This document shows, piece by piece, positions 7,746 through 16,159 of a DNA stretch of 53,468 nucleotides. This DNA is from Devosia sp. (lineage in GTDB: Bacteria; Pseudomonadota; Alphaproteobacteria; Rhizobiales; Devosiaceae). The notes under the pieces were generated by a model, which saw only the letters and a list, made by a program, of their open reading frames with translations, did not search any database and had not been told where the DNA came from. Position 1 is the stretch's first letter. Every line of letters begins with the position of its first letter. Made by a program: the position numbers and the translations under genes. The stretch spans positions 1 to 53,468 of the forward strand of contig DATCRS010000558.1 of assembly GCA_036568845.1 (NCBI GenBank), in the 5' to 3' direction.

Positions 7746-7857
7746 ATGAACCCCCTCCCTCGTTCCCTCCCCTCAAGGGGGAGGGAGGCGCCGACTGAGA
7801 GCCCCGATGTATCGCACCCCTCCCCCTTGAGGGGAGGGGGTGGGGGAGGGGGTTCAT
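7746..7857. repeat. 112-bp intergenic inverted-repeat element (CIR/REP-like)
   Basis: About 40-bp arms ATGAACCCCCTCCC..CCCTCCCC-TCAA-GGGGGAGGG and its reverse complement around a ~30-bp spacer; each arm is itself a hairpin. Confidence 0.85.
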
Positions 7858-13786: not shown

Positions 13787-14065
13787 TCAGCCTTCGCGGT
13801 AGTGCTGGATCCAGGTCGTGCGCAGCCCGGCAAGACCATGCTTGTCGATGGCGGCCTGCCAGTTGAGGAACTCGTCGACGCTCAGCGTATAGCGGGCGCA
13901 GGCCTCTTCTAGGCTCAACAACCCACCGCGAACGGCAGCGACAACCTCGGCCTTCCTACGGATCACCCAGCGCCGCGTATTCTTGGGCGGCAGGTCTGCG
14001 ATCGTCAGCGGACTTCCGTCCGGGCCGATCACGTATTTAACGCGAGGACGCATTGGTACGGTCAT
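13787..14065 (-). CDS. sciP: CtrA inhibitor SciP (DUF1153)
   Basis: VIGPDGSPLTIADLPP..RWVIRRKAEVVAAVRGGLLSLEEACARY..GLAGLRTT. Confidence 0.96.
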   Translation of the reverse strand: MTVPMRPRVKYVIGPDGSPLTIADLPPKNTRRWVIRRKAEVVAAVRGGLLSLEEACARYTLSVDEFLNWQAAIDKHGLAGLRTTWIQHYREG

Positions 14066-14111
14066 TACTCATTACTCAAACTGACCACTGCTTGAGGCTA
14101 GCCCAACGCGC

Positions 14112-14148
14112 TTAAAATTGGGTGAAGCGAAAGCTTACAAGCAGTTAA
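14112..14148 (-). promoter_or_regulatory. Imperfect CtrA boxes upstream of sciP
   Basis: Minus strand TTAA-N7-TAAG and TTCA-N7-TTAA; sciP is a known CtrA target. Confidence 0.5.
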
Positions 14149-14245
14149 GAGCGGACCAGCGCGGTTCGACTTGTCTAGGCCGAAGGCAGGGTGGCGCGAG
14201 AGCTTGGCCGGGGATAGCTTCCGCCGGCGCTTATGGAGGGCCAGC

Positions 14246-14800
14246 ATGGCCAAGGACTTTCCTTCGCTCACGCCGCATCATCGCGACTTCATCGCCCGGC
14301 AGCACATGTTCTTTACGGCCACGGCCGCTGCTGGTACGCGGGTCAATATCTCGCCGCGCTCGACCGACTACTTTCGCGTCGCCGGCGACAACGCCGCCTG
14401 CTATCTCGACCGCACCGGCAGCGGCAACGAGACCTCGGCGCATCTGCTGGCTGATGGCCGGATGACGATCATGTTCTGTGCGGTTGACGGTCCTCCGCTG
14501 ATCCTGCGGCTCTACGGACGGGGCCATGTCATCCACCGAGACACGGAACGGTATGCCGAGCTGCTCGCCGCTCTATTCGACGGTCGGGAGCCGCTGGGTG
14601 CGCGGCAGATCGTCTGGCTCGATTTCGACCTGGTGAAGACGTCCTGCGGTTATGGCGTTCCGCTCTTCGACTATCAGGGCGAACGGGACACGATGGACCG
14701 CTGGGCCGAAGCGAAGGGCCCAGAGGGCATCGAGGCCTACTGGCGCGAAAAGAACGTGGTGAGCATTGATGGCCTGCCCACGGGCATGCCAGTGGAGTGA
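14246..14800 (+). CDS. Pyridoxamine 5'-phosphate oxidase-like FMN-binding protein
   Basis: FIARQHMFFTATA..VNISPR..YLDRTGSGNETSAHL..GRMTIMFC..PLILRLYG..TSCGYGVP; SD GGAGG before ATG 14246. Confidence 0.85.
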   Translation: MAKDFPSLTPHHRDFIARQHMFFTATAAAGTRVNISPRSTDYFRVAGDNAACYLDRTGSGNETSAHLLADGRMTIMFCAVDGPPLILRLYGRGHVIHRDTERYAELLAALFDGREPLGARQIVWLDFDLVKTSCGYGVPLFDYQGERDTMDRWAEAKGPEGIEAYWREKNVVSIDGLPTGMPVE

Positions 14801-14818
14801 GAGGCCGCGATACTCCTG

Positions 14819-14903
14819 CCTCTCCTCCCGTGCGGGGGAGATAGCGATTTCTTGGCCTTAGCGAAGCTAAGCCTTAGAAATCGCAAGAGAGGGGCACGCG
14901 ATG
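14819..14903 (+). repeat. Palindromic repeat copy A, left flank of DUF559; contains the SD and start codon
   Basis: CCTCTCCTCCCGTGCGGGGGAGA-TAGCGATTTC..TTAGCGAAGCTAA..GAAATCGC-AAGAGAGGGGCACGCGATG. Confidence 0.85.
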
Positions 14904-15245
14904 GTCAAGCATCCACCGGTTGATCGCACTTTTGCAAGATCGATGCGCACCAATGCAACTGATGCGGAGCGCCGGCTTTGGAGCATGCTGCGCGGCGGCA
15001 GACTCGAGGGATTGAAGTTCAAGCGGCAGGTTCCGCTCGACGGCTACGTGCTCGACTTCGTTTGTTTTGAGAAGCGGCTGATTGTTGAGGCGGACGGCGG
15101 TCAGCATTCGGAGTCCGTGCACGATGCTCAGCGCGATCGCCACTTTGCGACGCAGGGGTTCACGACCCTTAGGTTCTGGAACACCGATATTCTGACGAAC
15201 CCTGATGGGGTCTGGGCAGAGATCAGGAGAGTTGTGAAAGGTTGA
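14901..15245 (+). CDS. DUF559 (Vsr-like, PD-(D/E)XK-type) endonuclease domain protein
   Basis: AR.MR.N.TDAE..LW..LR...L.G.KF.RQ.P...Y..DF.C....LIVEADGGQH..D..RD......GF..LRFWN motif. Confidence 0.92.
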   Translation: MVKHPPVDRTFARSMRTNATDAERRLWSMLRGGRLEGLKFKRQVPLDGYVLDFVCFEKRLIVEADGGQHSESVHDAQRDRHFATQGFTTLRFWNTDILTNPDGVWAEIRRVVKG

Positions 15246-15247
15246 AG

Positions 15248-15349
15248 CATCCCGCGCCCCTCTCTTGCGATTTCCAAGGGCTTAGTCCTCGCGAAAGAGC
15301 TCGGTCTAAACCCAGGAAATCGCTTTCTCCCCCGCAAGGGAGGAGAGGG
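15248..15349 (-). repeat. Palindromic repeat copy B, inverted, starting just after the DUF559 stop
   Basis: Reverse complement reads CCCTCTCCTCCCTTGCGGGGGAGAAAGCGATTTCC..TTAG..CTAAGCC..GAAATCGCAAGAGAGGGGCGCGGGATG, matching copy A. Confidence 0.85.
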
Positions 15350-15373
15350 TGCGTATCTCGGTATCTCAGTCGT

Positions 15374-15460
15374 CCCTCTCTCCCCTTGCGGGAGAGAAAG
15401 CGAGGCCTTGGACTTAGCTCTTGCTAAGTCCCTAGCCGAGCAAGAGAGGGGCTCGGGATG
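15374..15460 (+). repeat. Palindromic repeat copy C; forms a 213-bp inverted doublet with copy B
   Basis: CCCTCTCTCCCCTTGCGGGAGAGAAAGCG..GGACTTAGC-TCTT-GCTAAGTCC..GCAAGAGAGGGGCTCGGGATG. Confidence 0.8.
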
Positions 15461-15487
15461 GCACCGCGTATCCCTGGCTCGCGCTAG

Positions 15488-16159
15488 CTAAGCTGCCGCC
15501 GTCGTCTCGCGCACCGAGAGAACGGATGACAGGTTCACCCGCGCCGCGTCACCCACGATCAGCACCGGTTCATTGCCCGAGAAGTCGACCCCGGTCACCT
15601 GGCCGCTCATCTCGGTCGCCACGTTCACCATCTTGCCGCTGGCGTTGCGCGCCTGGATGTTGATCGAGTAGGTGCCGTTCAGGCGCGCGCGTCCGTCGTT
15701 GCCAATGCCGTCCCAGGTGAAGACGCTTTCGCCCGATCCGACATTGCCCTGCTTGGTGAAGACGACGTTACCCGAGGAGTCCTTGACGGTGACGTCGATG
15801 GTGGCGGCCTCGTCCACGGCGAAGTGCCATTGCGCAACCCCGTTTGCCAGCTCGCTGCGGACGCCCGAGGCGGTGATGGTCTTGCCGATATAGTTCACTG
15901 CTGAGGACTGGCTCGCGTTCTGGTTGGCGAGCATCATCGCTTCCAGGAACTGGTTGGTCTTCAGCTGTTGTTCGACGCCCGTGAACTGCACCAGCTGCTG
16001 GGTGAACTGGTTGGTGTCCAGTGGGTCGAGCGGGTTCTGGTTCTTGAGCTGCGTGGTGAGAATTTGCAGGAACGTATCGAAATTGTCGGCAATCGTCTGA
16101 CGCGACGAGCCAAGTGCGCTCGACGAATTGTTGGTGCTGCCAACGCCGCTGACGGCCAT
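15488..16159 (-). CDS. flgD: Flagellar hook capping protein FlgD
   Basis: FDTFLQILTTQLKNQNPLDPLDTNQFTQQLVQF; FTWDG in the Ig-like domain. Confidence 0.96.
   Translation of the reverse strand: MAVSGVGSTNNSSSALGSSRQTIADNFDTFLQILTTQLKNQNPLDPLDTNQFTQQLVQFTGVEQQLKTNQFLEAMMLANQNASQSSAVNYIGKTITASGVRSELANGVAQWHFAVDEAATIDVTVKDSSGNVVFTKQGNVGSGESVFTWDGIGNDGRARLNGTYSINIQARNASGKMVNVATEMSGQVTGVDFSGNEPVLIVGDAARVNLSSVLSVRETTAAA

Follow-up and report, generated by a model that had tools for sequence, protein, structure and literature searches.

In the Devosia sp. contig DATCRS010000558.1 (the window, a stretch of 53,468 nucleotides), a short gene of the DUF559 family lies between inverted, structured repeats. 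This raises the question of whether gene and repeats form one element, and whether the encoded protein spreads the repeats. The original prediction had read the locus as a REP/RAYT-like cassette with a different enzyme. The features on which our analysis rests are the following:

14246..14800, + strand: PNPOx-family gene, the left host gene, outside the element (open reading frame, Pfam and comparison of relatives)
14819..14903, + strand: unit A, 85 bp, left end, tail toward the gene (sequence comparison and folding)
14885..14894, + strand: third (mirror) purine tract of unit A, AAGAGAGGGG, a predicted ribosome-binding site
14901..15245, + strand: DUF559 (YcjD-like) gene for a Vsr-fold nuclease, 345 bp with stop, 114 amino acids (open reading frame and Pfam)
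15248..15349, − strand: unit B, 102 bp, right end, tail back toward the gene, with a longer second hairpin (sequence and folding)
15350..15373, no strand: head-to-head spacer of the B–C doublet, 24 bp, containing the head tag CAGTCG at 15367–15372
15374..15460, + strand: unit C, 87 bp, partner of B (sequence comparison)
15488..16159, − strand: flgD, the right host gene, convergent, outside the element (open reading frame and Pfam)

The gene is bracketed by inverted repeats, as had been described: the architecture reads head–unit–tail, DUF559 gene, tail–unit–head, with both tails pointing at the gene. Complementarity between the arms of A and B is 88% over 43 nt and 91% over 32 nt; between B and C it is 80% over 44 nt. 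Unit A runs from a pyrimidine tract through a 5-nt loop, a purine tract, a 40-nt hairpin and the mirror purine tract to a short tail that closes with ATG. It had been proposed that this copy supplies both the Shine–Dalgarno sequence and the start codon of the gene. The ATG is itself part of unit A, and AAGAGAGGGG, which ends 6 nt 5′ of it, is a predicted ribosome-binding site. A unit–ATG join like that of unit A recurs at G000:C3 in this genome and at G026:C208 in a congeneric one. At the other end, unit B begins 2 bp past the stop codon and forms with C a doublet of 213 bp, both as first reported.

Contigs from run X1 cover 14000–14894 and 14866–15276 with zero differences. Since this run probably represents the source sample, the match excludes only assembly error, and an artefact at the A–gene–B joins is thereby ruled out. 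Run X1, the sole listed sequencing run with the locus, contains no joints that skip the cassette; no RNA run is listed. A promoter and terminator scan of 14000–15700 found no terminator-like and no sigma-70 site; identity of the repeat as a terminator was rejected. Rfam returned eight matches for 14700–15600, all far below gathering scores, and no intron match. Elsewhere in the window, 7750–7851 holds a second head-to-head doublet without a gene; it is made of the same triplex repeat, in a subfamily with a short loop, and carries the same spacer words. Beside flgD, a DUF1153 protein (13787–14065, − strand), which we take to be the cell-cycle regulator SciP, is 95–100% identical throughout the genus.

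Fold of the repeat unit and of the DUF559 protein

Units A, B and C each fold better than 200 of 200 shuffles (z −4.4, −4.8 and −3.2). They share a grammar in which a pyrimidine/purine hairpin is followed by a variable second hairpin and then by a mirror purine tract, the tracts being of the GGGAGAGAA type. In all three units, which are detected as a triplex motif, the final purine tract is a mirror image of the purine arm in hairpin 1, over 8, 8 and 10 nt, respectively; this signature was missing from the original prediction. TMECO, as described in the accessible text of Holder et al. 2015 (PMC4666352), begins with a pyrimidine tract, which a loop joins to its purine complement; a 3-nt loop then leads to the third tract, again of purines. 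The window units carry a hairpin of about 40–60 nt in place of that 3-nt loop. With second loops of 42–59 nt, they depart from the exact TMECO consensus, which some homologous DUF559 flanks fit directly (for example, L037, L042 and L055 left). Loop 2 measures 1–3 nt or 10–70 nt in the DUF559-flanking set. At the base of hairpin 2, the sequence changes among homologues with pairing kept.

To avoid circularity, the mirror was assessed in 208 DUF559-flanking units chosen by hairpin 1 alone, 193 of which have a purine block and yield 104 distinct pairs. A perfect mirror (T allowed for A) occurs in 73 of the 104 pairs versus 35 in shuffles, a value reached by none of 2,000 shuffles in a test that relatedness inflates. 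The Watson–Crick alternative, in which the purine block pairs perfectly with the pyrimidine tract, holds for 22 of 104 pairs (31 with G–T). For the window's own repeat class, the figures are 7 of 12 for the perfect mirror and 2 of 12 for perfect Watson–Crick pairing. ViennaRNA, which does not model triplexes, predicts ordinary three-way junctions for units A and B. Judged by their sequence, the window units are BoxC/TM intrastrand-triplex motifs with a long second loop; given the less clear mirror in their own class and the three-way junctions of A and B, the triplex itself is a prediction.

The REP/RAYT-like reading stands for the layout and fails for REP in the strict sense. GTAG is absent from A, B and C; CGTC is absent from A and B and occurs once before C, in the spacer, where it is not common to other copies. 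The assembly, which is 88.6% complete, has no match to RAYT/Y1 (PF01797), to C5 methylase (PF00145) or to Pfam Vsr. With no RAYT in the genome and no GTAG/CGTC tag abutting the palindrome, RAYT-driven REP was rejected, and the repeat is in kind the BoxC/PIT/TM triplex motif. GANTC, the CcrM site, is also absent from A, B and C, on which ground we rejected membership in the Caulobacter CIR family; CIR was compared by its description in a review (PMC2229807, in excerpt), not by sequence.

The encoded protein matches Pfam DUF559 (PF04480) with an E-value of 3.6e-38 over residues 10–112 (130.2 bits against a gathering score of 20.6; profile positions 5–108 of 109) and is 44.6% identical to E. coli YcjD. 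Its AlphaFold model (pLDDT 89.7) comprises a single domain of 114 residues. The best structural matches are an uncharacterised Neisseria protein (3hrl, Z 16.3), I-Bth0305I (3r3p; Z 11.6, r.m.s.d. 2.6 over 91 residues) and Vsr (1cw0, Z 9.9), which upholds the Vsr-like fold assigned to DUF559 before. The matches that follow include RAP domains, which share the Vsr fold and belong to RNA-binding proteins. A profile search of PDB sequences finds 3r3p at just E 0.02, along with one chance match at E 1.2. None of 88 homologues departs from E23, D52 or E63, and conservation is at least 90% at D65, H69 and D75. The dN/dS ratio is about 0.15 against four of seven near homologues, dS being saturated for the other three. 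The spacing of E23, D52, D65, H69 and D75 parallels that of E73, D102, D115, H119 and D124 in VsrA, residues mapped to the Vsr active site in the available text of PMC12907096, and also that of the EDxHD set in PMC3239194. The active-site pattern is thus of the Vsr type, conserved and subject to purifying selection, with spacing indicating the likely residue equivalence. There is no separate DNA-binding region as in I-Bth0305I, so specificity would have to come from the small domain, from a dimer or from the shape of the substrate.

Linkage of DUF559 genes and repeat units

With A, B and C as queries, BLAST detects 35 units, which are spread over 18 contigs. Thirty of these pair head to head into 15 doublets, whose two units are separated by a semi-conserved spacer of about 24 bp. 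A looser, general detector raises the genome total to 360 units versus 0 in 1.03 Mb of shuffled sequence; the repeat is therefore not unique to this locus. Doublets of the B/A+C type lie at 15 places, 13 of which have no adjoining DUF559 gene. The units of the general detector include 36 head-to-head doublets. Tail-to-tail pairs number about 70 (from 72 rows, a small number being duplicated or mis-called) and have the polarity of the cassette with a 30–35-nt spacer in the gene's place. Of 350 units across the genome, 70 have CAGTCG roughly 10 nt 5′ of their head versus 2.3 expected, and tag words concentrate 9–14 nt 5′ of the pyrimidine tract. Among 64 congeneric genomes, G026 is the only other one with near-identical doublets (81–87%). 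For 187 of the 360 units, no gene-flanking unit reaches a similarity of 0.6 (with the units of gene C12 outside the reference set), and these 187 include large families without a matching gene in the 88.6% complete assembly. Eighty of the 360 units lie well within open frames of at least 300 codons, some of which will be shadow frames in this 65% GC genome.

All eight DUF559 genes of this genome lie beside units and have unrelated neighbours. Inward units flank six of the seven testable genes on both sides; gene C12 has a doublet downstream only, and gene C3, which is truncated by a contig end, has a doublet upstream. The wider set comprises 135 distinct DUF559 loci, 124 of them with 200 bp on each side: 74 protein-only loci (best 80 of 343), which come from Pseudomonadota and a small number of further phyla, and 50 congeneric loci, about three of which were retrieved because of an adjoining repeat match. 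An inward unit lies within 200 bp on at least one side in 117 of the 124 loci. Split by origin, the count is 70 of 74 protein-only loci (best 80 of 343) and 47 of 50 congeneric ones. Both sides are occupied in 70 of 124 (43 of 74 protein-only, again from the best 80 of 343, and 27 of 50 congeneric). By comparison, control windows 800–1000 bp off the DUF559 loci contain an inward unit in 4 of 93 cases, and 600 control genes, drawn from the 2319 long open reading frames of the genome, have one on one side in 35 cases and on both sides in 1.

The repeats also co-vary with the gene. The left and right units of a locus are more similar to each other (0.69) than to other units (0.43; n = 71 two-unit loci; 0 of 5,000 permutations), and in every one of the 28 congeneric loci a unit's own partner ranks among the top four. 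Protein similarity correlates with repeat similarity, with a Mantel rho of 0.30 (n = 71) and of 0.49 among congeneric loci (n = 28; 0 of 999 permutations). On the protein tree, repeat class changes 29 times versus 67 when shuffled (0 of 200); the tree is a quick one with many open forks (121 of 135 proteins, 14 short or unit-less ones left out; 109 columns; 53 of 118 branches open). Paralogues of this genome cluster with other genomes' genes of matching repeat class, and the nearest proteins (G026:C208 at 73%, C3 at 74% and a Devosia record at 70%) all have the same long-loop class. The G026 cassette occupies a different locus, and its left unit differs from A at 5 of 85 positions. The dS between the genes is 1.38, near saturation, and a near-copy of A beside such a gene suggests that units are exchanged or refreshed faster than the gene. 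The right unit of the G026 cassette belongs to another subfamily, so the pairing of repeat and gene is not strictly one-to-one.

Across the 64 congeneric genomes, in which kin are not independent, the number of hairpins (0–276) correlates with that of DUF559 genes (0–11) at rho 0.68. The value is 0.60 after subtracting two hairpins per gene, 0.59 per Mb and 0.64 in the 36 genomes at least 90% complete. The median is 8 hairpins in the seven genomes without DUF559 and 54 in the rest; 6–26 hairpins persist in six of those seven.

In E. coli K-12, TMECO no. 9 lies 168 bp downstream of ycjD, and a decayed inward unit is found at the stop/3′ end of the gene. E. coli has roughly 4,300 genes; with 18 TM sites among them, any given gene adjoins one less than 1% of the time. 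In the region 3′ of ycjD (L191, 3240–3410), a decayed duplicate of the gene's 3′ end precedes TMECO no. 9, and the upstream unit is gone. The ycjD region is covered to at least 80% in 3343 of 5426 genomes and, according to the excerpted text of PMC12817139, alternates with the eefRABCD operon.

These observations make us highly confident that the DUF559 gene and its repeats are one inherited cassette; linkage and co-variation would also follow from plain co-inheritance. The nuclease–repeat partnership put forward in the original prediction is thus supported on its comparative side, through genome-wide copies, flank enrichment, co-variation with the protein and empty sites in relatives, and that DUF559 recognises or spreads the repeats is what we infer. 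In the literature searched, which comprises few subscription papers, we found no work that ties DUF559 or YcjD to flanking repeats; the tabulated enrichment of DUF559 genes among predicted inversion targets (PMC9881135) hints at the association indirectly.

Site occupancy and junctions

The empty sites proposed to exist between the PNPOx gene and flgD of relatives are indeed found. Among the best 29 of 36 congeneric flgD loci, the DUF559 cassette and the window's repeat subfamily are absent from all 29. Sixteen of these loci keep PNPOx, and in 11 of the 16 the PNPOx–flgD gap is 25–68 bp versus 693 bp here. The relatives are too diverged for the ends of the element to be placed by this comparison. 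At L006, L007, L010, L015 and L016, other repeat subfamilies fill the same gap 3′ of flgD (judged by eye), which points to a repeatedly used site; at L008 the gap is 1216 bp. At the C502 doublet site, G026 has a different repeat and G031 has none. The earlier statement that neither a transposase nor a target-site duplication is visible also holds: the longest direct repeat across the outer ends of the window element is a 5-mer, and the 88.6% complete assembly contains no Y1/RAYT gene.

A second occupied site lies within a coding sequence. Thirty cobN alleles were retrieved of the 60 genomes with a match, and 28 are measurable. Six of the 28 congeneric alleles have a short loop of 37–45 amino acids, and 17 carry in-frame units of several subfamilies. 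The cobN of this genome (L192, G000:C12) contains a whole DUF559 domain and a doublet in frame, with 205 amino acids between the anchors. The presence of the cassette is patchy both at the flgD site and at the cobN loop. Two further repeat-like peptide stretches lie elsewhere in the CobN protein of this genome, and by coordinates DUF559 occupies the same cobN spot in G076, G006 and G023.

Eight allele pairs from four polymorphic TM loci of E. coli have ragged ends and a target repeat of 0–3 bp. One 186-bp indel ends 40–50 bp beyond the units, with a 3-bp repeat. The pairs also display substitutions at the junctions and two collapses across a unit's own 9-bp repeat, and the differences may be gains or losses; the ygfF–gcvP TM locus has no usable empty allele. 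Ragged ends without consistent duplication argue against cut-and-paste or DDE transposition. The junctions are compatible with nick-and-repair copying and equally with loss. A classical MITE, or an insertion sequence with a DDE transposase, was rejected on the lack of a target duplication in the window and on the 0–3 bp repeats and variable ends of the E. coli TM alleles. At alx–sstT in E. coli KY 1497 (L250), an insert of about 390 bp, palindromic, rich in GC and unrelated, stands in place of the TM doublet.

Proposed mechanism and alternative readings

We favour a repeat-bounded DUF559 cassette in which the Vsr-fold protein probably binds and nicks the folded repeat, with host repair then copying the units. 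Our confidence in the role of the enzyme is moderate because the evidence on movement and junctions is the weakest link. In single-stranded DNA, the unit would fold into hairpin 1 with a purine-motif third strand, hairpin 2 being a tolerated loop insertion. The enzyme would read the shape of the folded unit and cleave near the head, where the tag words cluster. Strand transfer would fall to host recombination or repair, as with homing endonucleases, in keeping with ragged ends that lack target duplication. The products at new sites would be single units, doublets or the whole cassette, and gene-less units may be non-autonomous copies served in trans. With its translation start supplied by unit A, the gene could be read from host read-through transcripts.

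By analogy, the cassette likely resembles a selfish, REPtron-like element, its linkage being observed and its nuclease action proposed. As in the REPtron (REP/REPIN with RAYT, as described in excerpts of PMC3733652), one gene lies between inverted copies of a dispersed palindrome, gene lineages within a genome are repeat-specific, and there are gene-less head–head and tail–tail dimers as well as intragenic in-frame copies. In contrast to the REPtron, the enzyme here is a PD-(D/E)XK Vsr-fold protein without HUH or tyrosine, there is no Y1 gene in the genome, and the unit has a mirror third tract and no GTAG/CGTC tag. BoxC, PIT and TMECO share with our units the three-tract grammar (T allowed for A), inverted pairs, intergenic position and variability between strains; they differ from the locus described here in its hairpin as loop 2, its tract type and the DUF559 gene between its units. 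The accessible text of the same paper (PMC4666352) states that Holder et al. never found mobility genes near TMECO. The closest characterised fold is that of the EDxHD homing endonuclease I-Bth0305I (PMC3239194, in excerpt), which has the same acidic/histidine pattern and provides a precedent for a Vsr-fold nuclease spreading itself via host repair. Unlike I-Bth0305I, the DUF559 protein has no N-terminal NUMOD/HTH region (114 versus 266 amino acids) and no intron or intein, and it occupies many unrelated sites with structured repeats at both ends. Vsr and VsrA, as far as the available text of PMC12907096 describes them, share the fold; the DUF559 gene differs in having no Pfam Vsr match, in the absence of a C5 methylase match from the 88.6% complete assembly, and in being multi-copy and repeat-bounded. 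Caulobacter CIR, according to the excerpted review (PMC2229807), are likewise two-arm intergenic Alphaproteobacteria repeats of about 100 bp whose means of mobility is unknown, and Rickettsia palindromic elements are similar in their in-frame insertion in proteins.

A broader proposal can be put forward only tentatively. DUF559/YcjD might constitute a separate class of bacterial mobile element. Its 114-residue, structure-specific nuclease would read an intrastrand triplex as the element end; aided by host repair, it would multiply itself along with hundreds of gene-less copies, in-frame protein insertions among them. It would be the missing mobiliser of BoxC/PIT/TM (perhaps also CIR-like) repeats and a natural bacterial triplex-directed protein. 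If true, this would join two loose ends, namely BoxC/triplex repeats without a mobility gene and DUF559/YcjD without a demonstrated activity in the literature covered. It would also give intrastrand triplex DNA a biological role, open a path without a transposase by which repeats spread and in-frame insertions enter proteins (as in cobN), and allow an alternative reading of the Caulobacter vsrA phenotype. The gene–repeat link is open to test in E. coli K-12, where ycjD adjoins TMECO no. 9. Analysis of the present locus adds an extreme long-loop variant, a mirror-covariation test, correlations of the repeat with the protein and with gene copy number inside a single genus, and junctions that speak against transposition of the classical type.

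Alternatively, DUF559 could be a host-useful nuclease for very-short-patch-type repair that was captured between repeats, which would themselves move by another enzyme or by slippage or recombination at triplex-stalled forks. The Vsr fold of the protein fits such a passenger, as do the variability of TM sites without known mobility genes (PMC4666352, accessible text) and the ragged E. coli indels with their collapses over 9-bp repeats. Caulobacter VsrA, which has DUF559, causes the SOS response of a cytosine-methylase mutant, yet its nuclease activity is not demonstrated in the available text of PMC12907096. We nevertheless consider this reading unlikely: the genome has eight DUF559 copies and no C5 methylase was found in its 88.6% complete assembly, copy number ranges from 0 to 11 inside one genus, and such flanks on both sides occur in 1 of 600 control genes. 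In addition, repeat class tracks protein lineage, and the repeat load climbs with gene number.

A domesticated protein is less plausible still: it would act on the repeats in the service of the host, by resolving or trimming their triplexes and hairpins or by processing RNA made from them, and would not spread them, the flanks being self-regulatory sites. Purifying selection on DUF559, collapse and loss alleles in E. coli, RAP domains among the structural matches and the overlap of units with the start and end of the gene would all agree with such a guard, but the cassette is found at differing loci in related genomes and within cobN, and a higher gene number goes with more repeats, not fewer. 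Processing of RNA is further disfavoured by the statement in the accessible text of PMC4666352 that purine-motif triplexes do not form in RNA. An incidental link, with the repeats as ordinary regulatory hairpins or as ends of an invertible switch, is strongly disfavoured. Many units do lie between convergent genes or downstream of genes, and DUF559 genes are over-represented, at an odds ratio of 14.3, in the predicted targets of programmed inversion (PMC9881135, in excerpt), but this enrichment is expected from inverted flanks alone. The scan of 14000–15700 contains no terminator-like or sigma-70 site, work cited in the accessible text of PMC4666352 found that PIT and BoxC act neither as promoters nor as terminators, and an incidental link is at odds with 117 of 124 DUF559 loci having inward units versus 35 of 600 controls.

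The DUF559 family comprises 21,886 clusters at 50% identity (E ≤ 0.001). In other members (P0067, P0051, P0108, P0002 and P0042), DUF559 splits an indole-3-glycerol-phosphate synthase, lies twice in a restriction methylase, follows a methyltransferase or forms tandem double or triple domains.
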